Origin: Octopus vulgaris
Lineage: Eukaryota
Direction: 5' to 3'
DNA length: 64,000 bases
Assembly: GCA_951406725.2 (NCBI GenBank)
Contig: OX597830.1
Coordinates: 68,014,001-68,078,000, forward strand
Part shown: piece after piece, positions 26,630-61,665 of the stretch
Numbering within the stretch: position 1 is the first letter of the stretch
Layout of the letters: every line of letters begins with the position of its first letter
Position numbers and translations under genes: made by a program
Notes under the pieces: generated by a model
Told to the model about the DNA's origin: nothing
Database searches by the model: none
Seen by the model: only the letters and a program-made list of their open reading frames with translations

Positions 26630-26661
26630 GATCTCCATTTGGAAGTCTTTGCTACACAGAG
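26630..26661 (+). CDS. Microexon A1 (32 nt, phase 0->2): DLHLEVFATQ(S)
   Basis: atttcttttatttccag|GATCTCC...ACAGAG|gtaatgcaag; flanks homologous to five other A copies. Confidence 0.8.
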
Positions 26662-27556
26662 GTAATGCAAGAAATATGTCCCTAAATATGATAATATATA
26701 AGTATATATATAGCAGGGTTTCAGTCATGGTATATAGTAAGATAAAATCTTTAATCAGTTGAGATTATCCCAGCAATTAATAAACAAAAATATCTTTTAT
26801 GGATATTGATAACCCCAAACCAACAAGTGAGACAACTACCAATATCAGTTTATTATTGATTTCTATATAAGTCTTTTCTCGTTAAATGTTTGAAATATAC
26901 TAAATGGCTGCTCTTCCAAATCTTACCCGATTAGATCACAAGTATTATTTAAAAATAACAGAAAGGCAGACATCAACTGAAGGCTCAAAAAACCAAATGT
27001 TGATAGGATTTAAATATAGCACTCCGTTATTTTTCTACATTTATTTCTCTTAAGGATTAATAATTTTAATAAGCAGACAGTTTTATTGGGGAAAAAAATT
27101 GACATTTTGTGATATTGATTTCTTTTACTATTATAAAATGAACAGATTTGTGCAAAGTAAGGAGCAGTTGAAACTGGTTTGTGAACTCAGTGGGAAATCC
27201 ATAGAATCTGTAAATGATGATCCTAATTATATTCATAAACAGTGAGAGGGAGAAAGGGAGCAAGAGAAAGAGGGTGTCAGAGGGATGGAAAGAGAGGGAG
27301 GAAGAGAGAGATAGAGAAAGAGAGGATAAAATAAATTGATAGATAGATAGATAGATAGACTGACAGACAGACAGACAGACAGACAAAATATAAAGATGTG
27401 GGTGGGGAGAATGTATTCACTAATTTGTGGATTCGACTTTTGTAACAAGAGACTTGACCAAAGTTTGTGCGTTGAAACTGAAATGACCACATCATGGAGG
27501 ATGAATGATAACCACCACAACATACATATATTATTATGTAATATTAAATACGAGGA

Positions 27557-27775
27557 AGGCGACAAGTTGGCAGAAACGTTAGCACGCTGGGCAAAATGCT
27601 TAGTGGTATTTCGTCTGTCTTTATGTTCTGAGTTCAAATTTTGCCGAGGTCGGCTTTGCCTTTCATTCTTTCAGGGTCGATAAATTAAGTACCAGTTACA
27701 TACTGGGTTTTATCTCATCGATTGGCCCCCTCCCCCCAAATTTAGGACTTTGTGTCTAGAGTAGAAAAGAATATT
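27557..27775 (+). mobile_element. tRNA-derived SINE
   Basis: GGCGACAAGTTGGCAGAAACGTTAGCACG...GAGTTCAAATTTTGCCGAGGTCGGCTTTGCCTTTCAT; related copies at 19455 and 30755. Confidence 0.75.
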
Positions 27776-28379
27776 AAATATGAAAAAATCTCAAAAAATT
27801 ACACAAAACCATGATTTTTGGCAGTTTGGGATGAAGATTAAAATGACCAGTTTTATTGTTACTTAACAATTCTACAGATTCCTGTTTCTTCTTCTCAAGA
27901 AGCTGAGAGCAAGCAGCAATTAAAGAATGAGACTGATTTCATGAGAAATCCTGGTCTTAATGCTCCTCGGCAAAAATAATTTTTAAAAAATATAAATATA
28001 AAACAAAGCAATGAATTAAGCCATGTGGAAAAGGAAAAGACAACAAAGATTGAGGCAAAAGATATAGTCTTTTCAGAGAGAAAAAAGAGAAAATTAAGGG
28101 AAGGAGAAGGGGATTGTCTTTGTCATATTTCAGATGGTCAACATGGTAATGGATACAAGAAGTGGTAGTTAGTATGTGATTTCTAATAGCAGAGAGTCTA
28201 TTGATGTCTATGTGGAACTCAAGTGAAAATGAGATTAGAAAAGGGTAAGGAGAAACAGGTGTGTGTCAGAATACAATAGTTATGTGTGAGAGGGTAAGTG
28301 TAAGATTCATCAGTGGGTGCTGTAGTTACAAAGTTGAAGACAGGTGGCCCAGGGCAGGGTTCATGCTCCACTGACCGAA

Positions 28380-29645
28380 GTAGCAGTGAAATTTGGCAGA
28401 TGTGTAAATGTCTGAGCAGCTCCAAGAGAGCGCTGGTCACCTCCATGGCATAAAGGAACAGCTGGCAAAGGTACCATAAACATTGCTTACTTCACCTTAT
28501 TCTGGTCTGTATACCACTGAAGGCAGCGATTCAAGCAATGCAGTCGAAACACCAAGATGCAAACATCATTGACATCCCTCACTATTCGCTCATGGAATGT
28601 TTGAGCACTTATGGACAGCTCCAAAACAACAGACCTGAGAGTTGGTAGCTCTTGTTGTTAGGAAATTCGGCAGGTACAACATACACATTGCAGCTCCATG
28701 TGAGGCCAGACTTGCAAACAAAGGTCAGCTGACTGAGAGAAATCGGTTAACCCTCTTCTAGTTTGGCCTCAGTTGTGATGAACAATGTGAAGGAGGAATG
28801 GATTTTACCACCAGATCTAGTCTTATCAGCAAGATAACCAACATCCCCAAAAGACTGATGCCTCTGCAGCTTCACATCAGAAGAAAGCACCATCACAGTA
28901 CTTACAACCCCACCATGACTGGCTCTGAGGATTTTAATGATAAGATTTAGGAAGACTTGGAAGCTTACATAGTAATTGTGTCTAAGAAGGTCAAGCACGT
29001 CTTTTTCAGCAACTTCAGTGCCAGAGTTGCTACATGGATCGAGATATTGGGAGAAGCGGAGTTGGCAATATCCGCAGCAGCTCTCATCTGCAGCAAACCT
29101 TGGCATCTAATTGGATACGACATAGTCAGGAGGTGAGGCAGGTTAGGGTTACAAAGGCCATATGTGGTACGGAATGCTGGTCAGATCACAGATTCATCAT
29201 TGCAATCAGGACATGCACATCCAGCCTACATCCAGTACATCCAAGTGAAGCAGGCAAACAAGTGACTAAGTGTCAGCAAATTGAAATGACACAATGCGAA
29301 ACTGAATGTCAGCTGGGACCACGTGGACAGTAAGTTGAGCCAATTCAATAGTGGAAATGAGTGGACAGGAGTAGACTGGGTGGCATTTGGAGACATTATA
29401 CAGTCCTGGATCACTCATCTAGGTCAGAACTTGCATAAATACTAAAACTGCTCGACAACAAAGATGAGGTAATTCGGAAGCTACTACTTAATGAGAAGCA
29501 TGAAGCGTACAGAGTCACTAAGTAAGACAACACATTGGCCTCCAAGAAAGCAGCTTAAAACACTACAAAAAGCAATGTGCACATAAACCTCAGAGAGACA
29601 AACGATTCCTGGCTCTGCAACAAGGCAGATGAGCTGACTTGGCGA
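28380..29645 (+). mobile_element. Degraded RTE/BovB-like LINE, endonuclease region
   Basis: WNV..LMD..RPE...RYNIHIAAP.EARLANKGQLTE and VRVTKAICGTECWSDHRFII. Confidence 0.75.
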
Positions 29646-30391
29646 ACAGCAGCAACAACAACAATAATAATTCTCCACTTTCTTTATACCGTCTACCCAA
29701 CTATACCATCAACCATTTACATTATCTTCCCACTTTCTATGTCTGTTACCGTTATGGCCTGAAAAATTTCATTGTATTTTCCTTAATTTCTCTCATCTGA
29801 TGAAAAATAACAGCTGATATTTGAAGCATTGATGACTATGTGTTATGAAACAATAAATATAAGTAATAATAGCCATATAGATTCTGTGGATCTTGGTGAA
29901 TTGCAAGGTAACAATGAAACTGGTCAGTCTGGACATAATTTCACAGAAACACTAAATATATATGGATATGGTTTGATATATCTATTTAATAACTAATGTT
30001 GTTTTGGGACTGTTGCTATATTGTGACTGATGTTATATTGGAAGTGTTGTAAATATATATTTATCTGTGAATAGATCTATTTTTTAAGGTACGATTCCTC
30101 TCATTTGTTACTTGTCTCTGTTACAAATAGTTTCTCCATCTTTCTGCCATTATTACACCTGTCACTCTTCTCTGGCCCAATCATTCTCTCTGGGTATAAC
30201 TTTTCACCTGCCACACAATTCCTTTAATTTTACTTCCTTTCCCATTTTCTTGAGTCCATTTTATGCAAAAACACAATTTTTCTTCTATTCCTTACTTTCA
30301 GTTAAAAGACAGACTGAAATATTAAACTTTAGGCTCATCATGATAAATTCGCTTTACTAATCTGCAATTTTCACATTAACAGATTATCCAG

Positions 30392-30434
30392 TGACTTAGA
30401 TTATGATGACGATTTTTTCATGGCAAGACAAATG
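30392..30434 (+). CDS. Microexon B1 (43 nt, phase 2->0): DLDYDDDFFMARQM
   Basis: ttactaatctgcaattttcacattaacagattatccag|TGACTTAG...CAAATG|gtaagt. Confidence 0.82.
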
Positions 30435-30754
30435 GTAAGTCTTCTTTAATTTTTAAAGGTTATTTTCTTTTTGTACTGTTTTCATAAATTGTGATAAATG
30501 GGTTGTTGAGAATTTCATCAATGGGTTGTATAAAATGGATGCTGTATATCCTGTTTATGAATATTGTGATATATTTTCTCACATTGGTACAACCTGTTAT
30601 TATTTTTCATGCTGGTAGACCAAGCTATTGTCCTTCATACTTGTGTAGCCATTTACTATTCTTCCAATCAGTATGACTGTCTACTCCATCTCTCATTGTA
30701 GATCCAGCACAATAGGCTTCTATTTTCTCCAATATTATTAATGTCAGTGTTCAT

Positions 30755-30945
30755 TAGCAAGCAGGGCAAAGTGCTTAGCAGTATTCCGTCTGCTGCTACC
30801 TTCTGAGTTCAAATTCTGCTGAGGTCAACTTTGCCTTTCATCCTTTCAGAGTCAATAAATTAAGTACCAGTTGGGTACTGGAGTCGATTTGATCAACTAG
30901 CCCCCTCCCCACGAAATCTCGACCTTTTGAATATAGCAGAAGAGA
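30755..30945 (+). mobile_element. SINE (family of 27557)
   Basis: GGCAAAGTGCTTAGCAGTATTCCGTCTG...GAGTTCAAATTCTGCTGAGGTCAACTTTGCCTTTCATCC. Confidence 0.7.
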
Positions 30946-31489
30946 TTATTAATGTCAGTGTATAAGATTTCATTTTGCTATGGCTGGATACTGTTTAATA
31001 TTAGAAGAACCAGTTACTATATATCATACTGGTAGACCAGGCTAAAAATTTTTCATATTTGATGAGTAAGCTGCTAGTTTTCATATGATCAGAAGTAGAA
31101 AACTTTTAATATTGGTACAACCTAACTACTACTTTTCATATTCAGAGAGCCATAGAGCCATTTCTTAATTTCTCTGGACAGCTAATTAAAGCTGGGAAAT
31201 ATTAACATCTCTTGATTTAGTTTCATTACATTCCTTATGAAACCATAAATTAATAGAGCATATATAGGTGTACCTTAGTAAGGTGTGGCTAGAAAATCTT
31301 CAATTAACATGCATTCTAGAGAGATATTTGTGTATATATAATATAGAAGAGGAAAACCATTGTAACATCACCTACAGGAATTAAACACATGTCTGCTAAC
31401 CACTACAGGAAGGCAGCATTACAACTTCAATTGTCCAAATAAGGAACCTTTGCTTGGATTAGACAAACCAGAAAAAACTTGGATTACAC

Positions 31490-31890
31490 AGGCACAGGAG
31501 TGGCTGTGTGGTAAGTAGCTTGCTAACCAACCACATGGTTTTGGGTTCAGTCCCACTGCGTGGCACCTTGGGCAAGTGTCTTCTGCTATAGCCCCGGGCC
31601 GACCAATGCCTTGTGAGTGGATTTGGTAGACGGAAACTGAAAGAAGCCTGTCGTATATATGTATATATATATATGTATGTGTATGTGTGTTTGTGTGTCT
31701 GTGTTTGTCCCCCTAGCATTGCTTGACAACCAATGCTGGTGTGTTTACGTCACTTAGCGGTTCGGCAAAAGGGACCGATAGAATAAGTGCTGGGCTTACA
31801 AGGAATAAGTCCTGGGTTCGATTTGCTCGACTAAAGGTGGTGCTCCAGCATGGCCACAGTCAAATGACTGAAACAAGTAAAAGAGTAAAC
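31490..31890 (+). mobile_element. Full-length tRNA-derived SINE with internal (TA)/(TG) microsatellite
   Basis: GGCACAGGAGTGGCTGTGTGGTAAGTAGCTTGC...GGGTTCAGTCCCACTGCGTGGCACCTTGGGCAAG...GAAACAAGTAAAAGAGTAAA; second full copy at 51207. Confidence 0.85.
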
Positions 31891-32319
31891 TAGAAGTTTG
31901 TCAATGAATAACATATTTCATTCAATACAAAGGTGTGGTGTTATCCATCTTATAAACAAGAAGACAGAGAAAAAGTTTTATGACAATCCATGGGAATTGA
32001 ACACTGTCTATTCTGTAAATTGTATAGCCATGCCAGCCACAGCAAAGTGACATGACAACACTAACTATCCAATTTGGGATCTTAAAATTAATACAATGGA
32101 ATAGAGTACATGTGGCCTGCCATTAGAAAATCAGTCCTCAGAGGATCAAGATATGCTTATATTTCATCTAAAATTGAAATATACACATATACGTACATAC
32201 ACACATACATACACATATCTCTCTCTCTATATATATATATATATACATGCATATATATACATATATCTATATACAAATATACATACACACACACACACAC
32301 ATATATATATAAAACTCAA

Positions 32320-34200
32320 AATATGTGTGTGTGTGTGTATGCTTTTTATGCGTTTCCACATTTTTCATCCAATTTTGATGATTTTTTTTTTATTAAATGG
32401 CAAATTTACCCAGGCAGATCACTGCTACATTACCGATGCCTACAGATACACCCTTCTAGGATAAAATTCGATAAAACTGAAGTGACCCCACCACACACAC
32501 ACCTTTTGCAAAAAATGGTTAAAGTTGCACCTGAAAAGTTTTTACAGGAACGTCCCATTTTTATAATTTTGGTGTCAACAGGACCGTTATGTTGTGACAT
32601 TTCAAACAAATATTCTGGCACTACCTTGGGGTTTCTGATTCCCAAGAAAATTGCGAAAAACTTTGAAAAAAATTGATTTTTCGCAATTTTGCAAAATTAC
32701 ACGGTAGAAAACTTTTTACTGGAAAGTCCAATTCCTTTGGTTTTACAGCCAAAAAACCACATGTAATAGCAGTTCTATCAAGTGTCTGTTCTATGTCCAA
32801 AGGCATCCCTGTGACAAAAACACATAAAACTGAAAAAATCGATTTATTTTCAAGTTTTGAATCTTGAGAGCAGCCAGGGTGTCTACTTCTCCAGCTGGCA
32901 CAAGAACCCATGGATACCGTGCTCACTGCCTTCTTCAAACTATGCGCAATGACCCCTTTGCCAAGACACTCCTGTATCCTCAGGTTCCATCATATTACAT
33001 TTGGAAAAAGAAAACACACATTTGGGAATCAAGAAAACAAGGACAACCCATCGTGGGACAGCCAAACTTAAAATCATGTACCCCACCCTTGGAAGAGTTT
33101 ACACAGTTTGCCCTAACCAACAAGAATGATTTTACTTTTGCCTACTGCTGCATGAGGTCATGGGACTGACATCTTTTGACAACCTGAAAAACTTCAAAGG
33201 TGAAGTTTTTACTACATACTGCGAGCCTGCTGTAAAGCAGACTGCTAGAAGACGACGCTCAGTCTGACGCAACAATGGTGGAAGCTGTTACAATACGCTC
33301 AGCGAGGAGTCTTCAAAAACTCTTTGCAGTGCTATTGCAAACATGTGAACTCAGTGATCCTGTCACCTTATGGGAGAAATACAAGGAAGACCTTTCAGAG
33401 GACTACCACCACCAAGAACAACTTCTGTTGCCACTTAAACATCAGTTTCAACGATGAATTCTTCAACAGAGCACTCGACATTGAGGGCAGCCTACTTACT
33501 GCTGGCGGTAACGATCTTTCATTTTATAGTCTACCAAAAGTCAGCAGAACGAGCTCACACATACTACCAATATGCGTTATTCAGGAAACAGCCTCCGACA
33601 TCGATGCTCTTCAATAATACATCGACGGAACTGAGCCGAGGTTGCTTCAGGACCAGCAGCACACATACAGCGCTGTCTACACTTCCATTCGTGAATGCAA
33701 AGGTGGTATTTTCTTTTTAGATGTCCCAGGAGGAACTGGTAAAACATTCGTGACTAAACTTCTCCTTGCAAAAGTACGCCAACAAAAGGAGATCTCTTTA
33801 GCTGTAGCTTCTTCTGGAATTGCCATGACTCTACTGCCCGGGAGTAGGCTGGCTCATTCGATCTTCAAACTCCCATTTAATGCTTCTGTGTCCGACTCAG
33901 CCACCTGCAATAATACAAAAGACTCTGGCAAGGCAGAAGTGCTACAAAGGTGCCAGCTCATTGTTTGGGATGAATCCACCATGGCACATAAAGGATCCCA
34001 TGAAGCACTGGACAGGACCCTGAAAGACATCAGGGGCTGCATTAACCCCATAGGAGGCATTTCCCTCCTGTCTAGTGATTTCAGACAAACCCTATCCATA
34101 ATTCCAAAAGGCACCTGAGCCGACGCTGTAATGGCTTCATTATTTTATCTTTCCTGTGAGAGGACGTTACAATTTTGACTTGTACAACAAGCGCATGCAT
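32320..34200 (+). mobile_element. Helitron remnant (Rep/Pif1 helicase)
   Basis: DPFAKTLLYPQVPSYYIW, LQKLFAVLLQTCELSDPVTLWEKYK, GIFFLDVPGGTGKTF...AVASSGIA..LLPG..AHSIFKLP...LIVWDE...DFRQTL. Confidence 0.88.
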
Positions 34201-34713
34201 TACAACCACATGTGCCCGACATAGTGATCTCATGAAGATTAAAAGCGCATGACTTGCAGGTTAGGATTTTCTTCAGGGTGAATAGCTCATCCCACTCAAA
34301 AAGCCCCTGAATAAAGGTTGCTTAAGGGTATTGAATGAAACACCCATGTTTCCAGAGGTGAATTATTTAAACCCCAAAGAATTCCTCTCAACATATGGTT
34401 ATGATGCACACTAATCACATTACTTCAGGTTGTGATTAAAGATGCACATATTGTCAGCCACTAAGGTAGTAAAGGCCAAACAACTGACAAGCAAATCTAT
34501 AGTATTGGGCAGAATATTGTCATCACCATCACTATTATCGTTGTTGTTGTTATTATTTATATTAATACTCCAGGAAACATATACGGTTTAAGGATTATCT
34601 ATTTGGAATAAACCAATTATAACAGAATTTATATGCTAATCGCTGAAATTAACCAATTTTTCAAAACCCGTAAGGAAAACAGTAAACATTTGGAGAAATA
34701 CCTTATAACATAC

Positions 34714-34751
<38 letters not shown>

Positions 34752-35071
34752 GCGCGTATCATGTGGAAGTTATTTTCAATCGAATTTTACAACTGTATAA
34801 AATTCTTCAAATGCTTCGATTGTGTGTGTGTACATACATTTACTTGATAGCTGGCATTTATCAATGTTTTCTCCTACTGTGTTGATGTGCTGTTTTGTAT
34901 CATTAATAAAATTGCCTGCATTTTTGATGACATGGGTATGCTAGTGTATGATACTTTTCATAACCCCTTTAGTGTAATCCTCCACCACATCTTAGAAATT
35001 TGGTGATTATTATTTTCTGTGTTATTATGCTACATAAGGAATATTATAAAGCCACTGCAATAGTGGCAGAA

Positions 35072-35106
<35 letters not shown>

Positions 35107-36305: not shown

Positions 36306-36337
36306 GAAGATGAAATGGACAGCTCAGATGAAGAGAG
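36306..36337 (+). CDS. Microexon A2 (32 nt, phase 0->2): EDEMDSSDEE(S)
   Basis: atttcttttaatttcag|GAAGATG...GAAGAGAG|gtaatgcaag. Confidence 0.83.
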
Positions 36338-37908: not shown

Positions 37909-37948
37909 TGACTTAGAACTTGATGAATATTTCGAGCAACTAAAAAGA
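37909..37948 (+). CDS. Microexon B2 (40 nt, phase 2->0): DLELDEYFEQLKR
   Basis: ttactaatctggaattttcacatttacatattttgcag|TGACTTAG...AAAAGA|gtaagt. Confidence 0.83.
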
Positions 37949-40405: not shown

Positions 40406-40437
40406 AAACATGGAATAGGCAGCTCAGATGAACAGAG
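40406..40437 (+). CDS. Microexon A3 (32 nt, phase 0->2): KHGIGSSDEQ(R)
   Basis: atttcttttaatttcag|AAACATG...AACAGAG|gtaatgcaag. Confidence 0.83.
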
Positions 40438-41171: not shown

Positions 41172-44100
41172 ATAACTTTCTTTATTGGCCACACAGGGCT
41201 GAACAGAGAGGGGACAAATACAAATGTAAAGCTTTTCTTTTTGAAAATGAAAAAGAAAAAGGGAAAAATTCTGATCAAAAGGGATCGGTGGGGGATAAAG
41301 ACGGTCAAAAGTGATCGTGTATCACAGAAGAATTTTAAAAATCTGAAAAGCAAGATTATGTTTATCCGTGGAAAGAAAAGCCTATGGAAAAGACCACGGT
41401 ATCCTCAGGCAGGGAGGGAATAAACACATGAGAGCAAAGTGCTCTCTCTCTCTGTTTTCGATTAACAGGACCATGCTCAAAATGGTTTCATCACTCGCAT
41501 GCACCATCTTTGCTACGTTCACCCACCTTTTTTGAAACTTTCACAAGACAAAACCTGCCTCTCCATTCTCACCTTCCTTTTCAAGTGGTACTTGAAAAAG
41601 TTGATGAGCGATTGGCCAGAGAGGTAAGTGTTTGTCTCTAATCCTTTCGCTCGAGTCTGCCACACACTTTCTTTCACCATGGCCACCAGTATGATGAAGA
41701 CTGTCTTGCCTTCCAAGTTGAGGGAAGATGGTGGAGCAGTTTTCACGATAGACTCGACCGACAGGCGGACTCGTCTCACACATGACAACAGCCATTTGGC
41801 ATAAGCCCACAGGTCCAAAATGGTTTGAGACTGCATGAGTGTGTGCAGAATGGTTTCATCGCTCTGACTGCATCTCGGGCAAGTCGGTCCAGTGTGTCTC
41901 GAACCGTGCCTGAAGAGCTTATTCCGAACAGGTAATGCTTTTCGATAGCACTGCCAGGCCAGGGATCTTTGTTGATTGTCCATAGGTCCTGGCTCGAAAG
42001 TTGTCCTGAAAAGGCAGGTCAGGTGTTCCTCATCAACGCCCAGATTCTGCCCGAGAATGTCATCGCATCTCCCTCCACTAATCCTCTATAGAATGCCTTT
42101 GTTGTAATGAAGTTACACAAGTTTTGTCCCGGACGGCAGAGTTGCTTGACAGCAACGCGACACTCGCAGTCCCATTCACCTAGCCTCGGTCTCTGTTTAT
42201 TCCACAACTGCAATTCAGCCAAGGAGATAAGCTGCAGGAAAGCACACCACACAAACGGCGACCACACCTGTTCACCGTCGTCTATGAAGTGCCGGAGATG
42301 ACACAGTCTCAGCGCATCATCAACCTCCTCATGCCTAGGCCTCCATTTAGCGGGTGTTGACAGCAAATGGACTGCCTAACCATTGGAACGCTTCCCTTCC
42401 ACAAAAAATGGAAGAGTATGCGTTCCAGTTTGGTGATGGTAGGGTTGGGACAAGGCACGATGGTCAGATGGTAATCGATGACGGATGTGATGTATGCGAC
42501 CTTTTAGGCCACTCTAGTCATTATTTCACCCCAGTTCTTCTCCATTTGGAAATCTGGACAGAATCAGACCCTGAGAAATTGAACCGGTCTGTTGGTCAAG
42601 CGTCCAATGATGGAGACACTGTTGGATGGCATGGGCTTGCTTCTCCAGGTACCGAGCCGCAAGCCCACTGACTTTTCTCGATTAATTTTTGCTCCCATTA
42701 CCGCTTCATGTTCTTTTAGTGTCTCTCTGACCAGGTCGATGTGCTTGTGGCTTGACATTATGATGGTGACGTCGTCCACATATGCAGACACGCTCTTCTC
42801 ACATCCCAGCTCTCATAGCATGCCCCTCGGCGTTGCCAGCTTCCATGGTAGTGGCTGAAGAGTCAAAACATACAGCAGCAATGAGAGGGGGCTACCTTGA
42901 TGAACCAAACGCATGATGTTAAATGATCCGGATAGATGACCATTTACGTGAAATACCGAGCAGATGCCACTGTATAAGGCAGCGATCCAACCACAGAAGA
43001 CGGGACTGAAACCAGCCACTTTGAGGACAGCCTCCAAGTAGTGATGGTCTACCCTATCAAAAGCTTTTGATTGATCTAAATTGATCATCACCCCACCCAT
43101 GCCAGGTTCCTTAACTACGCAGTCTATGATGTAGTGCATCAGATGGAGGTTGACCCCTCTTGTTTGTCCTCTCTATGTTTAGCCCCTTGTGGGCAATAAA
43201 GAAATAAGATGGAGGTTGTCATGGATACTCCTATCCGGCATGGCGCACGTTTGTGCTTTGTCGACTAGTTTCTTGATGACAGGCGCCAACCTCTTGGCTA
43301 ACACCTTGGCCAAAATTTTCAAATCTGCATTGAGCAGAGTGATGGACCTGAAGTTATCTACGTCATTTCCCTTGTTCGGATCACCACTCCTTGCTTTACA
43401 AAGACTGGGATATTCCCGTTTTGCTGCCAGTTGCAGTAGACAGCTACCAAGATGCCTCCAAACAAGTCTGGCATATGGCAATAAAGTTCATAGGTCAGAC
43501 CATCCAAGCCTGGTGACTTGTCTCTCGCACAGCCTGCCATCATATCCCATGCATCTGTGGCTGTGATGGGTTTTTTACAGCACTCTGCCTCTCTTGCTGA
43601 GAGTCGTGGCAGGCCACGAAGGTAGGCACTACAGAACACTCTGCATTCTGACCCACCAGTTGTCCTGAACAGTTGGGCAAAGTGTTGTTGAAAGGCCTCA
43701 CACATCTTTTCAGGCTCAAGTAATTCACGCCCCTCTTCATCTGTAAGTGACCTAATGGTGGCTCTGTTGCCTCGTTGCACCTCCGCCACTTGGGCCTCTT
43801 GGGTGGCTCCAACTCCTTTATTACTCAAAGCATGCATCCTAGCTCTGACAATGTATCCTTCGTGTTTGGTGTTGAAGTGTTTGTCGGGGGCCAACCTCAC
43901 TGCCAGTACATGGGATGTGATGCCAGATCTAAGTGCCTCTTCTATTTTCTTAACTAACTCTCCCTCTATTCTATTTCAGTCTAATGCTAGGGCCTTATTG
44001 TACCTCACTGATTTTGCTTTAATTGCTTTCTTTAGGGCATACCACCATCTGTTGTTGATGATGGCACCAGTCAATGCCCTCTTAACTAATGTGCTAATCC

Positions 44101-44825
44101 AGTCCCTGTAAGCCTGGCGTTCTGTGAACGACATGTTCAGCTTCCAGTAACTGGGACCCTCCCTATATGTCTTAACTAAGTCAAGTGTACAAGTCACAAG
44201 TTTGTGGTCTGTGTAGCTGACTATATGGAATTGTGGACAACCTACACTATCTTTATCCACTGTCCTACAGAATATTCTAAGTACAATCTGGATGACCCAA
44301 TGTGGTTGTTCCATGTCCACATCGGCACATTCGGGTGGTCCAGTCGGTACCTCCCAAACAGTTGAAAACATCTGAGCGGGTCTTTGAAGCGTTTGCATCT
44401 CCACATAGTCTAGATGCGTGTCCAGGGTAGTGTTCCAATACCTCAGTAAAAGTAAAGGTTGAGACGTACCCAGGAAAACCTCTAGACGTCAAAAGAAATC
44501 TGGCCGGCCTGTTAAGAATGGTGCATAAACTGTAATCGGTCAAAAAGCACACCCATTGCTGCCATTGACATCCAAACAACCAGCCTACCCTCCGGGTCTA
44601 GGAAAATTGCTCTTACTTTGAGGTCCCGACACTTCCGAAGAAGCACCGCGGTGCCACCTCTGCCCATTCTCGGCAGACATGGAGAAAAATGTTGAAATGT
44701 CCGCCGAACATGTGCTGGAGTGCCCGCAGGCTGTGGAGTCTGGTCTCGCTGATAGAGTCTGGTCTGCAGATTTTGTGACTTGATGTCGTTTAACAGGTAG
44801 CCTTGTTTCCAAGGTGACCCCAAGC
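41172..44825 (-). mobile_element. Tx1/L1-clade LINE ORF2 (APE endonuclease, RT, Cys motif), degraded; 3' end in (GATA/GACA)n
   Basis: GGTAVLL, TDHKLV, GPSYWKLN, KSPGLDGL, FRSITLLNADLKILAKVLAKRL, NLDQSKAFDRVDH, QGSPLS, AYVDDVT, CPRC...ETILH; AATAAA at the 3' end. Confidence 0.9.
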
Positions 44826-46699: not shown

Positions 46700-48430
46700 T
46701 TTTTGAAATGTAATGTGTCTTGAATGACACAACAGGCCAGAGTGGACAATAATAGCTGTTAAATAATTTAATTATTCATAGTCTAATATAATATTTTGGA
46801 ATATAAAAATTCATTCTTCAGATATTGCTCGGAATTAATCGAGTCACTGTTATAATCAGTTTTCCAACGGTTACTGAATTTTTTTTTCGGAAGTGTGTCT
46901 GTAGTGGTCTCACGAAGCCCCTTCCAAAATTTCTTTTGAGAAGTGCACAAAGGCAGCCCTGTCTTGAGTTTATGTGTGTTGGCATTTCCGTAGCGCTGCT
47001 TCTAAGTTATGTATTATACATGCATTCTTTTTATACATAAGCATGTTACCATTGTACATGCAGGATGTCAATGTAGTTAAATAATAGTGATTGTTAATTT
47101 CCAATCTGTTGTTAATTTGAGGCCCCTAGTCTGTCTATGAGGATAGCTTCTTTAATTCTTAAATTTCCTAAATTTCTGTCATTGGCTTCAATTGTGACTG
47201 TTATGCTTTTGTCTGGAAGTTTTCTCAAAGAGGAGACTCACGTTTAGATGTTCTTTGGTGCAAATGTGTAATCTACACACCGAAAAACCTCCTCAGCTAT
47301 TGACCAATGCTTCCAGCACTGTTGACCAAGAGAAGAAACGCCTCAAACTTAAATTCTTGTAGCTTTGTACCAAATACTGCCACAACTCAGTCTATTACAC
47401 TGACACAGATGAACGGGACATCCACTGATCAAGATAACCCTAACATCAGGGGCACCAGCATACCATCAACAATGAAACACCTAGTCACACACTTGAGTGG
47501 GTCACTCTCCCATGAAGAGCTAGAACTCATCAGTCTGGGCCCTAAATTTATCTTGAGCCAACAGCCGAACGAGAAAATCTTACTCAACCTGGAAGCCTAC
47601 CTTTTCCTGAACAGCCGATCAACTCAAATGGCAATTGGTAATAAAGAAAAACAGCAACAACACACTCAGCAAATTTCCAACGTACCAACTAGACCACCCA
47701 CTCCCTCCCCTCAACAAACCAAGAACCCAACCACAAACTATCCGCGACACAGATTTATGCCAACGAGTAAATGCTGTGTATAGAATCCAATGTAACAAAT
47801 GCAAAAATTTTTAAGTGGGTGGCACAACCAGACTGTCACACATTCGCATCAAAGAATATTTAAACACGTGAGCCTCCTCCTTGAGAAAACATCTGGACAG
47901 ATGCCAGAACACCGACAAAAACATAACAATCACAATTGAAGCCAATGACAGAAATTTCAGAATTAAAGAAGCTATCCTCACAGACAGATTAGGGCCCAAA
48001 ATTAACAACAGGTTGGAAATTAGCAATCACTATATTATTTTACATTGACATCCTGCACGCACAATAGTAACATGCTTATGTATAAAAAAATGCACGTATA
48101 ATACATAACTTAGAAGCAACATTGTGGATATGCTAACACACATAAGCTTGAGACATGGCCACCCTCAAGCACTCCTCATGAGGAATTTCAGAAGGAGCTT
48201 CATGAGACCACTGCAGAGACACTTCCAAAAAAAGAAAAAAAAAATCAGTAACCGTTAGAAAACCGATTATAACAGTGATTCGATTCATTCCAAGCAATAT
48301 CTGAAGAAGGAATTTTTATATTCCTAAATATTATATTAGACTATAAATAATTAAATTATTTCACAGTTATTACAGTCCACTCTGCATTGTTGAGCCATTC
48401 AAGACGCATTACATTTCATAAAGCCTGAAC
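46700..48430 (+). mobile_element. Penelope-like element with inverted 3' duplication (arms ~46720-47280 and ~47800-48420)
   Basis: Diverged inverted arms; VYRIQCNKC...VGGTTRLSHIRIKE GIY-YIG remnant; LISLGPKFI; decayed hammerhead core CTGAAGAAGGAAT..ATTCC(T)AAA at ~48300. Confidence 0.75.
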
Positions 48431-48502: not shown

Positions 48503-48530
48503 ATCAGCTGACGATTCATGGCTAGAAAAT
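48503..48530 (+). CDS. Microexon B3 (28 nt, phase 2->0): SADDSWLEN
   Basis: ttactaatctggaattttctcattttctgatcttgcag|ATCAGCTG...GAAAAT|gtaagt. Confidence 0.82.
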
Positions 48531-49827: not shown

Positions 49828-49859
49828 GAACCTGAAATAGACCAACTATTCACAAAAAT
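49828..49859 (+). CDS. Microexon A4 (32 nt, phase 0->2): EPEIDQLFTK(I)
   Basis: ctttctcttattttcag|GAACCTG...ACAAAAAT|gtaatgcaat. Confidence 0.8.
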
Positions 49860-53358: not shown

Positions 53359-53410
53359 ATTTACGAATATTATCTCATCTGGTCATTCAGGATATAAATA
53401 TGGATATAAG
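53359..53410 (+). CDS. Microexon B4 (52 nt, phase 2->0): FTNIISSGHSGYKYGYK
   Basis: ttaccaatctggaattttctaatttactgattttacag|ATTTACG...TATAAG|gtaagt. Confidence 0.82.
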
Positions 53411-54977
53411 GTAAGTTCTCAGAAAAGAAGAACAGTAATTCTTTATAAATTTTATATTTTATAGATGAGTTCTTTTTTGCATAGATTGTAACAAATGGTT
53501 TGTTGAGAATTTCATCAATGGATTTGCCTAAAAGGAATGTTGTATGTTCTGTTTATGAATATTTTTATATATTTTCGCACATTGGTACAACAGGCTACTA
53601 ATTTTACACTGGTAGAACAATCTACTATTTTCCAAAAGATAGAACTGTCTATGCTATTTCTTATTGGTAGATATAAAAACTATATTTCATATATTTACAG
53701 CAGGCTTTCATGTTTTATAACAAGTGGAATAGTTTCTATTTTAGTATGGATGTATACTGTTTATAGTACTAGACCAACTAGTATTTTCAATGGCACCCAA
53801 CTATTCTTCACATGACAGTTCAGCACTGACAATTTCATGCATGACAATTCACCACATCTTTTCCATTTTGAAATTAATAATAAAATCCATTTAATAAGGT
53901 GTGCTTGTGTGCTTTCTGTGATAAACTCCACTACATAGGGCTTGTTTTTTTTATTTTAAAATTAGCAAATGTTTGTAGCTAACTGAAATCCTGAAAAGGA
54001 AAAAACATATCATCCTATGTTTGCAAAATAACAGTAATGAAATGGTATATTTGTATTAATAGCAAAAATGGTTTGGGGACTGTTAATAATTGAAAATGCT
54101 GTATAGCCCTACCAGTCACTGTATGGTGACTGGAAAAGTGTAAGAGTATCAGTTCATAGCATCATCTGCCTAGTATCTGTGACCAAAGAGGAGATAACTA
54201 CACCAAAATGCTAGCATCTCACAGTCTAGGTAGGTGGCGCTGCATGACAAAATGCAGTTAGTAGCTTGTTTCCCAGTTCAAATGTGCATCAAGCATATTC
54301 GGACTGATAGTAACATTATAATCACGGAGAGTGTTAGTGTTGCTACTAACGTGCTTTTGTTGAATCTCATTGGCATTGGCACAGGTTGGAGTAGGATAAA
54401 TTCACTCATGAATTCAAGTGATTCCACAGTTGCTCTTTCTGGAGTTGGAAAAGTTTGTTTCTACGTAGACAGTTATTGTCAATAAATAAAATTGATAATA
54501 AATTATTTGTGTGTGTGTAGAGGGGGGGGCTTTCAACTAATCTGACCTCCGTCCTACTCACAATGAACTTCTTTTTACTGAAAACGAGTTGATGGAGAGG
54601 AATAAATTATCTTTACAATCTGAAGTTCGGATGTGTGGATGCTGTAAAAATTTTATGGACTCCTTTGTCTTTTGTTACGCTGAGAAGAGAAGTCTAAAAC
54701 AATCAATGGAATGTCAGTTAAAAACTCGTTGCTGTTTTAATCGAAGTAAAACTGCAAATTTTCAAAGTAAATTAAATTTAGATTTTATGTTTCACCCACA
54801 CACATACAAATATGTATTTACATATATATATTTATATATATATATGAAATTAAATATCAAACTGAATTGTATTCAAAACATTATTTCTTTCTCCAAGAAT
54901 AAAACATTTTACAGATTTCGTTGATCTCATGCATGCATGCACACAAATTCACACATGCATACGCACATGTGTATGTA

Positions 54978-55963
54978 TTGGGTCATCCCATAAATAATGC
55001 AGTTTTTATACTTCTTTTATCTTTCAAAATTAAGATGAACAAAGTTCTTTTTTATCTAAAATATATTCTCCTTCATTTCCTACAATGCTCTTCCATCTAA
55101 CTAGTAGAATTGTAAGATCCCTCTTCCAAAATTCATTTGTCCATGATGAAAAATACTTCTCTAGTACTTTTCCAACCTCATCTACAGAATTCATATTTTT
55201 TCCGTCCAAATGATTTTGAAGACTGTGGAATAAATGATAATAAGATGGTGCAATGGTGGGTGGGACATCGTTTCCCATTCAAACTGTTCAGCTTTCAGAA
55301 TGCTATCCCCACTGTATGTAGCTGAGAATTATCCTCATGGAAGAACACCTTTCATCTAGAAACCAAAGATGGTCGTTTTTCTTCTAGTGCTAACATAAGC
55401 CACTCAAGTTGCTCATAGTAGATCTCCTTTGTTATAATTTGGTTTGGGTTTAACATTTGGAAAGTTTATGAGGAACTCATTGACCCAATTTTCTGACTTT
55501 TCCAATGGCACACAGGTGTCAATGAATGGTTGAATCCAAGCTTCCTGCTAAATCCAGGCTTCTCTGCAGGTTCCTTAAAAGTTATGATGTGATTTCATTC
55601 TACTAGGGTTTGCAGGACGTCCTCAGAATTTCTGGAACCACTGTTGACTCTGGATTATGTTTATTGTCTGATCTCCATATCATACTCTGCATAAATATTC
55701 CTCACACTTTCCATTGCATTGTTGTCTTTATTGAACACATAAAGTAAAATACACCAAAGATGCTCCTTTGTTACTTCCATTATAGGTTTGAAAAAATAAC
55801 TGTTAAAAGCGAATTACACTCTTCAAAACTTGCACTAAAGATATGTATAAGGTAAAATTACTACCTGCTTTTATAGCAAGTTGATGCAGGTAGTTTATCC
55901 CATCCCCCTCCGACTTTTAGTTCAGTCAATTGATAAAACTGCATTATTTATGGGGTGACCCAA
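54978..55963 (-). mobile_element. Internally deleted mariner transposon
   Basis: TIRs TTGGGTCATCCCATAAATAATGCAGTTT / AAACTGCATTATTTATGGGGTGACCCAA flanked by TA; IAPSYYHLFHSLQNHLDGK...RWKSIVGNEGEYI. Confidence 0.92.
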
Positions 55964-56939
55964 TACGTCTCCATATCATTGCACATTGGTACAATTAATA
56001 CTATCCATTGGTACTATACATTTAAACATTTTCATTTAAGTATCTATCTACATTTACCTTCAATTAACTTTGAGTTTATCGTCTTAATTACTTAATCACA
56101 TCCTTAGATTCTCAAATGGAATATATATTCATTAACAATACAGCTCATACCTTAATTTTAATTTTTATTCTATTTATGTCTTGTATTTTTAGTTTTAATT
56201 TTTAATTGTTTTATTCTAAAAAACAATTACATATATGTACATACATACATACATACATGCTGCATGCATTAGTATCAATCAGGGTGAATGAGTGCTCTCA
56301 AAATCATATTGGTGGATAAATATTCTTTACATTTGGGTTATCCTGACTACCATTAGTTTCATGGAGGGAGAGAAATATCTCAACAATTATTCAAGTCTAC
56401 CATATGGGACGTTGGTGTTTGTCTCCATCACATCATCATCATCATTATCATTAAGTAACTTCCATTTTCCTTGACAATTCAATAGCATCCAATGAGTTAA
56501 AGGACTGTGTTTAGCTTCAATGTCTGATTTGGTTTCTATTTATTGACAAAGAGAGAAAAATAATAATTAGAGAGTATAATATGTAAGTTGAATGGTACTG
56601 ACTTCATATACAGAGGAAGAAAGATTTTGAAGGATATAGTCACTAGTTGGACCTTCCTAAGCTTCTTACATTGGAATATAAATACCAAGTGATCAGAGAC
56701 ATTCACTTGGTTTTAATTTTCAGTTTCAATTCTTAGTTTCAATTTCTGTTTGAAGAGAAATAAGAAGTTATCATAGCTTTGTATTTCTCTTCCCATAAAA
56801 TTGTTGACATGTGCTTTGTATAAAACAATTAATATGATAAATACTATCAAACATCATCATTAACATTTAAACCCCTATTTTTTTGTGCTGACACATTGTT
56901 GCATAGTTCTATTATATATATCATTTCTTTTGTTTTCAG

Positions 56940-56971
56940 AACATTGTTAAATACAGCAGAGAAGAAGAGAG
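56940..56971 (+). CDS. Microexon A5 (32 nt, phase 0->2): NIVKYSREEE(S)
   Basis: atatcatttcttttgttttcag|AACATTG...GAAGAGAG|gtaatgcaag. Confidence 0.82.
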
Positions 56972-58329
56972 GTAATGCAAGGAACTAGTAAAATTTGATA
57001 ATATATATGTATATATATGTTAGAATTTCAGCTATGGTGTATAGTGAATTTAAAAACTTCACTCAGCTGAGATTATCCCAGTAAATGCTAAACAAAAACT
57101 TCTCTTAAAATCAGTTTACTATCGAATTTCCATATAAGTCTTTTCTCATAATATGTTGGAAATACACTCCCAAATCTTACTCAATTCTATCACTGGCATT
57201 ATTTACAAAATCAGAAAGACAGAAATCAAAAGAATGCTCAAATAATTCAAAATTTGGTTGGCATTTAATATAGCAATCCATCATTTCTCTAAGACACGTA
57301 TAGCATTAATGATTTCAACAATCAAACACTTTATTATTGGTGAAACAATTTAGATTCTATGATATTGATTTCTTTCTCTTATCATATAAGAAACAGATTT
57401 ATGCAAATTAAACTGAAATTGAAACTGATTTGTGAACTCAGTGGGAAATCTGATAATTATAATTTTAATTATATTCGTGCATAGAAGAGTAGAGAGAGAG
57501 AGAGATTTACTGATTTGGGAATTCTATTATTTTCTGGTAGGAGATTTGAGTAATGTTTGTGTGTTTAATATGAAATGATTTAATCATGGAAGATGAATGA
57601 GAGCCAAACACAACATATATTATTATATTCACTCCATAATATTTTCTTATAAATATTAAATATGAGTAAGTCACAAAAGGTTACACCAAACCCATGATTT
57701 GTGGCAGTTTGGGATGAAGATCAAAATGAACAGTTTTATTGTTACTTAACAATTCTACAGAATACAGTTTCATATCATATGCTAAGGGTAAGCTGCAATT
57801 AAAGCATGAAATTCAGTTTATGAGAAATCCAGGTCTTTGTGTTCCTTAACAAAAATAATTCAAAGATACAAAAATATGAGAAATATAAAATAAAGACAGT
57901 GAATTAAAAACCAAGAGGAAATGGAAAAGACAACAAAGATTGAAGAAAAAGTCTATTTCTATTAAGAGAGAAAAGAGAGAATATTAAGCAAAGGAGAAAT
58001 GGATTGTCCATGTTTTATTTCAGATGGTCATCATAGTAATGGATACAGGAAATGGTAGCAGGCATGTGAGTTCTTGAAGAGGAGAGTGGAAATGGGTTAG
58101 TGATGTACATGTGGAACTCAGGTAAAAAGAAATAAGGAAAGAATAAAAAGTGTGTCCCTACACAGTATGTATGTGTGAGAGGGTAAGTGCAAATGAAATA
58201 AGAAAAAATAGGTGAAAATGAAATAAGGAAAGACTAAAGAGTGACAGGGGTGTGTCACTACACAGTATGTATATGTGAGCGGGTGAGTGTAAGATTCAAG
58301 TAGTGTGAATATGTGTGTATGTACATGTG

Positions 58330-59260
58330 GTGGATGGCAAATGATGGAAGGACTTACAGAAACAGAAGTTAATTCCAGTGGGGGATAATACCTATAAAGG
58401 GACAGTTAATCAGGTGTAGAAGTGGCAGGGGAGGGGTGAAAAGAGAAAGGAAACAATTAGGATAAAACTAATTAATGACTAATTCTAGCTGTCGATGGGT
58501 GTATCTAAAACGAAAATCAATCAGTATTCACAAAAAATTTGGTTGATGGATGAAGTCTGGTATTGGAGAAATCTGTAACCTCCACTAGCATGTTGACCAA
58601 TCATCTTCACACCTGTCTCAATTTTACATGTGTTAGTGACTCGACCCCATGACCTACCACTTTCCAATACTGACCATTTGATCCTGGTTAAAGGTTTTCA
58701 CTTCATTTACTTCACTCTATCAAAGACTGACTTGCAGACCCAGAAAAGCCCTAAGTGTTTCTCAAAAGCTTGTTTTGGGACCAGGTTTCTTAGCAATTTA
58801 TGTTGGATTGGATTATTTGTGCAGCACTATCTGTAATTTGTTGGGAGGATGTGAATATTTATGTGTCTGCTAATGAAGCTGGCTAAGTGTATTAAGGAGG
58901 TAAGGAAAGATTGTGTAGGAAGAGATTGAAAACACGATGGAGATGCCCAACAGATTCGATTTGGGAAATTATATTCTCAAAGTGTTTTTCTTGTACACTA
59001 CATAGACATGGCAGCTTGATAGACTGTTTGCTCCCCAGCATTTTGTATTGTTCACTGGAGAGAGAGTAGAGAGGTTGCAATATTTCCAGACCACTATGCT
59101 ACATACCATACATTTCATAATTGAATGTCTTAGTGTGCATGTGTACTGAGGTCTCAGATGGAGACATAGTAGAACTGGCAAGATGAATCTCTGGCTCATA
59201 CCTTGTTGTTTGCTAACCTATTTCTGTTGTATGACTGCATAATCAGGGATGACCTGTGCA
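58330..59260 (-). mobile_element. Old, heavily degraded element body, possibly Penelope-like
   Basis: Lies between diverged inverted arms (~57960-58095 and ~59280-59400). Only weak LIFVLDTP-type C-terminal similarity. Confidence 0.35.
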
Positions 59261-59604
59261 GAAAACAACAATAATAATAGTTCTTCTCTTTCTTCTACTA
59301 AAACCCATATGTATTGTTTACACACTTCCTGTGTCTGTTACCATCATGCTCTGAAATAGCACACAGTATTTCCCTTAATTTCTCTCTTCTTTACCTAAAA
59401 AAGAAGGGCTGATATTTGAAGCATTGATGACTTGTTCATTTTCCAAACAACTTAATATACTGAAGTTTTTATATTTTTTTATCAAATATTTGATTGTTAT
59501 TTGTTAAAATGTTAACTGCATGTGTCTAGTTATAACTGATTTGCATAATAGCAAAAGATTGATGGCTGGATACTACACTATGGGTTAGGAATAAAGAAAT
59601 TATG

Positions 59605-59885
59605 AATCAATGGATCAACTCTGTTGTGAAATTTAACATCCAAGTGGCTGAGCATTCCTTAGACATGCGTACCCTTATTGCAGTTCTCACAGAGAGTCAG
59701 CATGACACACTGAATGTGACAAGGCTGTCCCTTTGCAATACAGGGACAACTCATTTTTGTCAGCTGAATGGACTGAAGCAACATAAAATAAAGTATCTTG
59801 CTCAAGCACAAAGGCACTGCCAGATATTGGACTGAAGCCCTTATGATCATGGGGCAAATAGCCCAACCACCAAGCTATGCACCTT
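59605..59885 (-). mobile_element. tRNA-derived SINE, paralogous copy of 50745-51068
   Basis: CAAGTGGCTGAGCATTCCTTAGACA...CCTTATGATCATGGGGCAAATAGCCCAACCACCAAGCTA. Confidence 0.75.
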
Positions 59886-60514
59886 CCCATATATGAAATA
59901 ATAGCCATATGAATTCTTTGGCTCTTGGTGAATCACAAAGAAACAATAAAACTGGTCACTTTGATTCTTATCCTAAATGGCTGAGACCTCATCTGACATA
60001 ATTGCAAAGAAACACTAAATATATATGGATATTATTTGATATAATTATTAAATAATGACCCATGTTATACCGATACTGTTGCAAATATTTATATATCTGT
60101 AAATTGGTCTAGTTTTAAGGTATGATTCCTCTTCTTTGTCACATGTCCCTGTCACAAATAGTTTCTCCACCTTTCTGTCACTTAGAATTTTCAGTATATT
60201 TTTACTTGTCTTCCTTTGAGAAATTGCCTCTTTCTAATTTTTGCCTTAATTTCTTAGACTCCTTTACTCTTTCTTTCCCTCTCACCCTTCATCTCTGACT
60301 GAATCACTCTCTCTGCTTATAACTTTCCACCTGCTACACAATTCCTTAAATTTTACTTCCATTTCCATTTCCTTGATTCCATTCCAAGCAACGACGCAAC
60401 TTTTCTTCTGTTTTTTCACTTTCTTTTCAATGATAAAGACTGAAATATTAAACTCTACACTCATGTCAAATTCACTTTACTAATCAGGAATTTTCTCATT
60501 TACTTATTTAACAG

Positions 60515-60590
60515 CTATACGAATAGTTTACCGTTTCAAAGAACTATCTCATACTGTATTCCAAACTTTCCACTAAAAATACCTATATTG
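60515..60590 (+). CDS. Small exon B5 (76 nt, phase 2->0): YTNSLPFQRTISYCIPNFPLKIPIL
   Basis: ttactaatcaggaattttctcatttacttatttaacag|CTATACG...ATATTG|gtaagt; open in the required frame. Confidence 0.82.
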
Positions 60591-61624
60591 GTAAGTGTTC
60601 AGAAAATCAGATAAGTAATTATTTTTAATTTTGTATAATTCTTTGATTAGTTCTATTTGCATAAACTATAACGAATGGTTTGTTGAGAATTTCATAATTT
60701 TTTTTTTTTTTGTATAAAAGAATGCTGTATATAATGTTTTGAAATATATTTATATATTTTCCAATATTGGTACAACAGGCTACTATTTTTTATACCTGTA
60801 GACCAAGCTATTATTCTTCAGACTAGTGGAGCCATCTACCAGTTTTCCAACAGGTAGATCCAGCAACTATATGCAATACATTTACAGCAGGCTTCTTTAT
60901 GTCATACTATTATGGCCAGTGTAGTAGTTTTCAGTTTAGAATTATTGGATGCTGTTTTTCGTATTAGAAGAATGAGCTACAATATATCATATTGGTAAAC
61001 CAGACTAGTATTTTTTTGAAATTTGTTGAGTAAGCTGCTAGTTTACATATCATTAGTGGTGGAAAATTATTTTAGATAAGATGGAGCCTAACTTACTATT
61101 TTTCATATCAGTAGAGCCAGTTCCTAATTTCCCCAGATGTTGTAAGACAATCAAGGGATGGTATATCTTATAAACAAGAAGACAGAAAAAATGTGCTAAG
61201 AATATTTATGGGAATAGAACACTATCTCTCCAGTAAATTATTTAGCCATGCTAACTGATACACCAAAGTGACTTAAAAAAATATAGCCATCTAAATTAAA
61301 ACCCCTAATTTAACAAACTGAGATAGACATACATTTGGCTTGTCATTGGAAACTCAGATCTTACAGTTTCAAAGTATGAATATGTCACATGGAATCACAA
61401 TTATATTCTTGAGGGGATCATTCAGAAATTCTATAGAAATTTTTTTTGCAGTTCCAAAGATTAGAAGTTTTAGAGAAGGGATGTTAAGAATGTTGGTTTT
61501 AAAAACGTTTTAAAAGAAATATGCCTTTTCTATAATCGTTGGCAAAAATTGATGCTATAAGATTGTCAGTAGTTGAATCCCCAACATTTTTTCTCATATT
61601 CAATATCATTTCTTTTATTTGCAG

Positions 61625-61665
61625 GATGATGTTCAGGAATTGGTACAGGAAGACATAAAATTGAG
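61625..61665 (+). CDS. Microexon A6 (41 nt, phase 0->2): DDVQELVQEDIKL(S/R)
   Basis: caatatcatttcttttatttgcag|GATGATG...TTGAG|gtacta. The acceptor is homologous to other A copies, but the donor differs and an alternative GT at 61643 is possible. Confidence 0.62.

Follow-up and report, generated by a model that had tools for sequence, protein, structure and literature searches.

Exon array and reading frame

The 64,000-nt stretch of Octopus vulgaris DNA analyzed here (hereafter the window) carries, behind the last conventional exon of a TRPM gene, an array of very short exons of two kinds, A and B (Table 1). The initial annotation had placed six A and five B exons here with defined lengths, phases and AG/GT borders, continuing the single stop-free frame of exon 19710-19804, and 11/11 were recovered as such. 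For B1, originally read as a 43-nt exon starting at 30392, this acceptor is valid, but a second in-frame acceptor lies 9 nt upstream (30383, 52 nt) and is the one used by the protein models CAI9735608, CAI9735657 and XP_036366207. The proposed homology of the intron flanks was borne out by flank HMMs, which recover exactly six A and five B units in the window; having been trained on the same 11 exons, these models test the completeness of the unit count and are not an independent confirmation. Besides these units, the flank HMMs mark part of the B3 flank in inverted orientation near 46.6-47.3 kb of the window. A continuation of the array past the window, which had been thought probable, was rejected: A6 closes it and is followed by exon C (Table 1), a conserved SLOG exon.

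Table 1. Exons of the window copy, in window positions unless marked C17 (coordinates of the whole contig).
Feature	Length (nt)	Phase	Position	Strand	Remarks
SLOG3 exon	89		8952..9040	+	End of SLOG sheet and first following helix; AG/GT borders, open frame
SLOG3 helical exon	191		16514..16704	+	Compared with 79-Mb copy
MHR3-start exon		ends 0	19710..19804	+	Last conventional exon ahead of array
A1	32	0 to 2	26630..26661	+	Homologous peptide in XP_036366207 and XP_052830018
B1	52 (43 from acceptor 30392)	2 to 0	30383..30434	+	Length from upstream acceptor
A2	32		36306..36337	+	In youngest, copy-number-variable unit
B2	40		37909..37948	+	37 nt in some copies
A3	32		40406..40437	+	Sequence peculiar to window copy among copies examined
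B3	28		48503..48530	+	Another 28-nt homolog in SLOG2-SLOG3 linker
A4	32		49828..49859	+	Identical in 5/5 copies
B4	52		53359..53410	+	O. bimaculoides counterpart well conserved
A5	32		56940..56971	+
B5	76		60515..60590	+
A6	41		61625..61665	+	Ancestral-type exon opening SLOG4; position, phase and upstream flank shared with SLOG1-3 openers (38-41 nt)
Exon C	82		C17:68080899-68080980		Partner of A6, conserved SLOG exon; 2.9 kb past window end

None of the array exons (0/11) has a length divisible by three; runs of whole A/B pairs can be removed in frame, and skipping a single exon shifts it. The pair is phase-symmetric and can therefore be duplicated without breaking the frame. Across copies and other linkers, A exons measure 32, 38 or 41 nt and B or C exons 28, 37, 40, 46, 49, 52, 70, 76, 82, 85 or 88 nt. 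The earlier statement that length changes come in multiples of three thus holds save for two exceptions, both outside the window copy (a B4 of 53 nt, lengthened by one A within an A run, and a B1 with its donor deleted), supporting selection for frame. Assuming independence, the chance that some 12 length changes would all be multiples of three is estimated at near (1/3)^12.

Gene identity and domain layout

The assignment of the locus to a TRPM gene was upheld by the presence of SLOG (PF18139), PF25508 and Ion_trans domains. In CAI9735657 and in an array-bearing copy at C17 79.3 Mb (the 79-Mb copy), MHR3/4 and the transmembrane channel domain lie in the same gene. The best PDB sequence match is human TRPM2 (E 3e-94), the fold matches TRPM structures, and Table S1 of PMC13143021 assigns the O. 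bimaculoides protein XP_052830018 to TRPM-beta. Sequence comparison identifies the gene as a putative channel of the TRPM-beta (TRPM2-like) type, in which the ligand-sensing SLOG (MHR1/2) domain is present as four tandem copies. The gap-free 79-Mb copy (C17 79.3-79.7 Mb) has SLOG exons at four places, with the array followed by SLOG4, MHR3/4 and the TM exons, and the 200 kb between SLOG3 and the TM exons contain no gap. This order places the array as a predicted acidic linker of ~150 residues between SLOG domains 3 and 4. The usual TRPM layout has one melastatin region per subunit; the 79-Mb copy has four SLOG units and XP_036366207 three, and no annotated protein covers all four SLOG domains together with the channel.

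Each SLOG unit opens with a pair of exons, one of 38-41 nt (phase 0 to 2) followed by an exon C of 82-88 nt (phase 2 to 0). A6 and C keep the family-consensus motifs flanking the N-terminal Cys-rich segment, without its cysteine cluster; this segment is usual in TRPM and lost in several lineages (PMC13143021, section 28). At the positions of the TRPM2 MHR1/2 ADP-ribose pocket residues Y295, R302 and R358 (PMC6759353), the 79-Mb copy has F/R/R in unit 1 and S/K/K, P/R/G and S/R/Q in units 2-4. No Pfam match to NUDT9H was found in the protein model CAI9735657, in an analysis whose scope on the DNA ended at the S6 exons.

The linker contains 35 D/E among 149 residues and is probably disordered, as suggested by a predicted pLDDT < 50 (weak evidence, with the linker in only 3/52 alignment rows). 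Between the 79-Mb copy and O. bimaculoides, 100/150 residues are identical in the linker and 260/323 in SLOG4. Searches for the array peptide retained 2/454 candidates among longer proteins and 1/55 among proteins of similar length, all of them Octopus models and none from a transcriptome assembly, and among the best 150 of 2694 matches in a representative library those reaching well into the linker are likewise Octopus models; a restriction of the array to Octopus is not proven by these counts, the Decapod and Nautilus coverage of the searched libraries being uncertain. Neither a multi-SLOG TRPM nor the array was described in the literature we searched, in which subscription journals were largely missing.

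Splicing and origin of the A/B pairs

Array exons follow one another in the same order in the annotated proteins of three Octopus species, namely O. bimaculoides (XP_052830018/19/20), O. sinensis (XP_036366207, A1-A4) and O. vulgaris (CAI9735657, B1-A6), and are therefore very likely coding. Judging from annotation, in which transcript evidence is combined with ab initio prediction, the gene would be expressed and splicing in series would be its main form. The account we consider probable is that, for the most part, splicing joins these coding exons in series in the mRNA of a four-SLOG TRPM-beta channel of Octopus, whose linker was diversified mainly in DNA. The variable-region splicing originally proposed by analogy with Dscam or schistosome micro-exon genes (MEGs) is not supported: the five models XP_052830018/19/20, XP_036366207 and CAI9735657 all run the exons in series, and single exons are not divisible by three.

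A combinatorial cassette, in which blocks of A/B or B/A pairs are left out to give many linker isoforms per gene, appears unlikely, even though removal of any run of whole pairs leaves the frame intact and B1 has two in-frame acceptors. The window-copy model CAI9735608 does skip A4-B5 in frame, joining B3 to A6, but its first exon (window 3096) and its last (past the assembly gap) resemble ab initio fill, which makes this skip weak evidence. In O. bimaculoides, isoforms X1 and X3 have 13 additional residues between A1 and B1 that are missing from X2, but this insert was not found between A1 and B1 in either the window or the 79-Mb copy.

Under series splicing of a linker diversified in DNA, diversity would arise mainly from copying of the gene, from A/B units being gained or lost, and from positive selection. 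The proposed repeated duplication of a two-exon cassette is supported. The A flanks match those of the SLOG-opening exons (mean z 11.6 upstream and 12.9 downstream), and the flank downstream of B matches that downstream of exon C (mean z 5.9, against 0.3-0.75 in controls), with B-only HMM matches lying directly behind 4/4 C exons of the 79-Mb copy. The A exons are shortened versions of the exon with which every SLOG (MHR1/2) domain begins. B exons are only partly traced to C, since their upstream flanks have no detectable relation to those of C (mean z -0.3). Compared with five other SLOG-unit exons, the B upstream flank matched nothing beyond a microsatellite, and the A6 downstream flank did not match the other A flanks. 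A2 and A3 have flanks more alike than those of other units.

Unequal crossing-over at the phase-symmetric opening pair could have copied whole SLOG units or the pair alone with the frame intact; partial pair copies, shrinking three bases at a time, would then have diverged to form the ~150-residue linker, acidic and probably disordered, that may tether SLOG1-3 to the channel-proximal SLOG4. The probable source of the four-SLOG gene is the group of single-SLOG Octopus TRPM-beta paralogs, the nearest relatives being XP_014781149 and XP_014774531, which have one SLOG domain and 58% identity to the SLOG4-channel part; no array peptide was found in them.

Divergence among copies and comparison with known systems

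SLOG exon matches are concentrated on one chromosome (75/81), and five near-identical channel exons lie elsewhere on C17, the window copy itself stopping ahead of any channel exon at an assembly gap (100 N at C17:68083022, 5 kb past the window end). Unit number varies among copies: the 69.46 Mb copy has three A2/B2-type pairs, and the 67.76 Mb copy has lost A1 and the B1 donor and gained one pair. Some copies, 1.3-2.4% apart, may be uncollapsed haplotypes.

Comparison of the window copy with its 79-Mb sister revealed an excess of amino-acid change (pN 0.213, pS 0.077, introns 0.020; Fisher p 0.006) without any stop or indel. Exons 8952-19804 and A3 remain stop-free at approximately 10x the intron divergence: exon 8952..9040 differs at 12/89 nt (flanks 1.9%), exon 16514..16704 at 38/191 nt (pN 0.23; flanks 2.2%), exon 19710..19804 at 18/95 nt and A3 at 10/32 nt (flanks 2.7%), while A4, A6 and B4 are almost invariant. 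The locus thus bears signs, at the level of sequence, of strong positive selection, which would act on the A2-B2-A3 part and the neighboring SLOG3 helices. The linker might serve as a spacer or as a decoy or binding surface, tuning a nucleotide-gated channel under an arms race.

The same divergence might reflect gene conversion from an unseen diverged donor or an edited cDNA, with a near-neutral linker in which only the frame matters. The changes are clustered, pS is raised as well (0.077), and the likeness of the A2 and A3 flanks fits recent duplication or conversion; nevertheless, we consider this improbable, given that the genome search returned just three close copies of the divergent exon, each with its own sequence, and that A4, A6 and B4 hardly vary. 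Retro-conversion by RNA editing is not favored, with A>G making up just 13/68 changes. It is very improbable that the window copy represents a segmental duplicate, truncated or dead, whose array was carried over from a functional copy elsewhere: it does end at the gap, with no SLOG4, channel or other + strand TRPM exon in the 100 kb beyond, its upstream SLOG1 exon has a 1-nt loss within an A run and other copies carry lesions, but 17/17 compared exons keep an open frame and intact splice sites, three exons with such an excess of amino-acid-changing sites are not what neutral decay produces, and a 1-nt loss in a homopolymer would be a typical assembly error.

In a broader scenario, which we consider doubtful, an expanding octopus cluster of TRPM channels with four or five SLOG domains, their linker varied by gene copies, by unit number together with positive selection and by block-skipping of A/B pairs, could supply a variable repertoire of nucleotide-signal receptors, as in innate immunity or chemosensation. 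For O. vulgaris, a survey from 2026 records a single alpha and a single beta TRPM (PMC13402157, Table 1).

Descriptions of TRPM channels give them a single melastatin region, and the octopus locus departs from this picture in its clustered SLOG exons and four SLOG domains per gene. With TRPM-beta or TRPM2-like channels it shares the SLOG (PF18139), PF25508 and Ion_trans domains, but it has four tandem SLOG units rather than one, microexon-built linkers and no Cys-rich segment; it further differs from TRPM2 in the missing NUDT9H match of CAI9735657 and in a candidate ADP-ribose trio kept only in the first unit, as F/R/R. With this locus one can test whether additional SLOG domains bring in new ligands or serve as decoys. 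It also shows with unusual clarity how new protein sequence arises when a phase-symmetric pair of exons is partly duplicated, the introns recording the duplication history after similarity between the exons has been lost.

Schistosome MEGs (PMC10526429) resemble the array in having short exons amid long introns within duplicated, fast-evolving genes; most MEG exons have lengths divisible by three and can be skipped singly, and the genes code for secreted proteins that carry signal peptides, whereas no octopus array exon is divisible by three and the array lies between two SLOG domains, in the cytoplasmic region of a channel. Tandemly duplicated homologous exons are likewise a feature of Dscam1 and tandem duplicated exon substitutions, but there the duplicates are mutually exclusive (PMC9741552), whereas the octopus ones co-occur within a single model, with two phases alternating along the array. 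Two SLOG domains ahead of one channel domain are also predicted in a jellyfish TRPM-like protein (EP00794_Sanderia_malayensis_P009475, an unverified gene model), which at 32% identity apparently reflects an independent duplication.

Gene architecture and copies

All 11 alternating microexons (A1-A6, B1-B5) reported in the initial annotation were recovered at their proposed positions with AG/GT borders, and they form a single open frame behind the last conventional exon. The array is real. Self-comparison of the window also bore out the duplication of the flanking introns, the A2/A3 units being the youngest (88% over 1.4 kb); the 32-nt A exons within the window differ at 6-21 of 32 positions, and A flanks by 3-31%. 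Flank HMMs detected no additional A/B units in the window. The window spans C17:68014001-68078000, and proteins that match its exons exactly carry the species label Octopus vulgaris. The suggested continuation of the array past the window end did not hold, as A6 is followed only by exon C (82 nt), the partner of the SLOG-opening exon, and then by a 100-N gap.

In the sister copy at C17 79.27-79.69 Mb (79-Mb copy), the array is present as well and leads into SLOG4, MHR3/4 and transmembrane exons; this copy is gap-free across 200 kb from SLOG3 to the transmembrane exons, and the three stretches covered further upstream contain the opening exons of SLOG1-3. This layout identifies the gene as a TRPM with four tandem SLOG (MHR1/2) units, in which the array links SLOG3 to SLOG4. 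Upstream of the window, the same strand carries three SLOG units, and the 100 kb downstream of the window copy contain only a paralog on the opposite strand. Two 3.6-kb elements in inverted orientation, one on either side of the gap, may point to an inversion or to a scaffolding join.

A search with the Pfam model for SLOG, PF18139, yielded 81 exon matches in the 2.8-Gb genome, 75 of them on C17. Array units occur at six C17 places, and one channel exon has seven genomic matches (five at 97-100%, two at 76-77%). Three A2/B2-type pairs with a 4.3-kb period lie at 69.46 Mb; the copy at 67.76 Mb has lost A1 together with the B1 donor and gained one extra A/B pair; and a copy near 67.4 Mb seems, judging by search coordinates, to have one extra SLOG unit. 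An assembly gap lies in or near the array in four of the five copies other than the window copy. Pairwise substitutions among five copies amount to 1.3-2.4% (10/10 pairs), so that, set against a published heterozygosity of 1.22% (bioRxiv 2023.05.16.540928), some copies, though not all, may be haplotypes.

Domains and fold support the original TRPM attribution and place the gene in TRPM-beta, to which Table S1 of PMC13143021 assigns O. bimaculoides XP_052830018. The likenesses drawn to schistosome micro-exon genes (MEGs) and to Dscam were not upheld: by the descriptions in PMC10526429 and PMC9741552, respectively, the gene is not a MEG and the array is not a Dscam-type cluster. PMC13402157 gives the O. 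vulgaris TRPMs as one alpha and one beta, and its main text lacks the terms "exon", "SLOG" and "tandem"; "microexon" does not occur in PMC13143021. Two TRPMs appear in PMC12919962, and TRPM expansions are reported in other molluscs (bioRxiv 2024.05.23.594666). Neither the array nor a multi-SLOG TRPM is described in the literature searched. In the jellyfish Sanderia malayensis, a TRPM-like model likewise contains two tandem SLOG/MHR regions, which seem to have arisen independently of the octopus case.

Coordinates and characteristics of features in the window and elsewhere on C17
Feature	Position	Observation
3.6-kb element	window 3831-7459; C17:68086415-68090061	reverse-transcriptase-like frames; second copy inverted, 96.7% identical, beyond assembly gap
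SLOG3/MHR3 exons	window 8952-9040, 16514-16704, 19710-19804 (last conventional exon)	diverge ~10x introns vs sister copy, changes nearly all amino-acid changing
Tandem repeat	window 15292-15893	degenerate, 70 nt, ~8 copies
66-nt repeat	window 17288-17542	
Microexon array	window 26630-61665	A1-A6, B1-B5
Presumed intronic transposon remnants	window 33618-34118, 43358-44488 (- strand)	helicase-like and LINE-like frames (labels from motifs)
Inverted duplication	window 46700-47269, 47838-48422	81% identical; B3 upstream flank rearranged, exon B3 retained
100-N gap	C17:68083022	
SLOG1 exon upstream of window	L097:273-320	nine clustered substitutions vs 79-Mb copy; 1-nt loss in A run; whole stretch 99% identical
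Third copy	C17 67.72-67.80 Mb	in-frame deletions in two SLOG3 exons; 1-nt loss in last conventional exon; extra A/B pair strongly diverged
N-terminal second array	C17:79622000-79693000	alternating phase, partly B-type exons
Orphan B-type downstream flank	near C17:79625745	

Origin of the A and B exons

A 38-41 nt exon (phase 0 to 2) opens every SLOG unit, and exon C (82-88 nt, phase 2 to 0) follows it; A6 is one of these opening exons. The flanks of A exons resemble those of opening exons (16 pairs each; mean z 11.6 upstream, 12.9 downstream), with no match for the A6 downstream flank in this comparison. The downstream flanks of B and C are alike (32 pairs, mean z 5.9; controls 0.3-0.75), and their upstream flanks do not match (z -0.3). 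A B-only HMM found matches behind all four C exons of the 79-Mb copy (E 4e-5 to 8e-9), and O. sinensis XP_036366207 contains, elsewhere than in the array, a 32-nt A exon directly followed by C-type sequence. Further B-type exons are located in the SLOG2-SLOG3 linker, and others belong to an alternating array at the N-terminus (20, 49, 56, 46, 44, 49, 56, 70 and 38 nt). Because the opening pair is phase-symmetric, unequal crossing-over could copy whole SLOG units or the pair alone. The A6/C-type pair keeps both motifs that border the Cys-rich segment in the family consensus, a segment absent, by loss, in several lineages (PMC13143021, section 28).

Coding status and splicing

Array exons recur in order, A1 to A6, in O. 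bimaculoides XP_052830018/19/20; A1 to A4 are present in O. sinensis XP_036366207, and B1 to A6 in O. vulgaris CAI9735657. Prediction of 28-32 nt exons by independent pipelines may reflect transcript support, but a published O. vulgaris annotation draws on ab initio predictions as well as transcripts (bioRxiv 2023.05.16.540928). The 79-Mb copy shares 100/150 linker residues and 260/323 SLOG4 residues with O. bimaculoides. The linker is acidic at 35 of 149 residues; in the AlphaFold2 model of XP_052830018, pLDDT is <50 at residues 91-180 and 190-238, and the SLOG4-MHR part is modelled well and matches TRPM structures. The linker, present in only 3 of 52 alignment rows, is presumably disordered.

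Serial splicing of the array exons probably yields a flexible acidic tether, with diversity stemming from gene copies, from differences in unit number and from positive selection. Skipping of A/B pairs in blocks would be permitted by the exon phases and is unlikely to be the main mode. A4-B5 are left out of CAI9735608, a model of the window copy, but the exons at both ends of this model resemble fill.

Divergence among copies

Aligned DNA of the window and the 79-Mb copy differs at 0.020 per site (1516/75107). The three SLOG3/MHR3 exons show pN 0.213 against pS 0.077 (Fisher p 0.006), without stops or indels relative to the 79-Mb copy, and strong positive selection on the window copy at these exons (8952-19804) is likely. 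At these exons the 79-Mb protein nearly matches that of O. sinensis, which makes the window copy the derived one; the third copy diverged separately. In a cross-copy comparison of non-independent pairs, which excluded flank pairs >12% different, the 53-nt B4 and identical triplicates, A2/A3 exons differ by 0.181 (flanks 0.036), B2 by 0.122 (flanks 0.028) and B3 to A6 by 0-0.035 (flanks 0.010-0.021). Over the whole array, pN between window and 79-Mb copy (0.053) only slightly exceeds pS (0.034), an excess driven by A3. Conversion by edited cDNA as the source of divergence is not favoured, because A>G accounts for 13 of 68 changes.

In a nucleotide-binding channel present in multiple copies, accelerated change at the surface is suggestive of an arms race or of ligand diversification, in either immunity or sensation. 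Human TRPM2 binds ADP-ribose via Y295, R302 and R358 (PMC6759353); in an alignment to this protein, F/R/R occupies these positions in the 79-Mb copy's first unit, and two or more of the three residues are missing from each of units 2-4.
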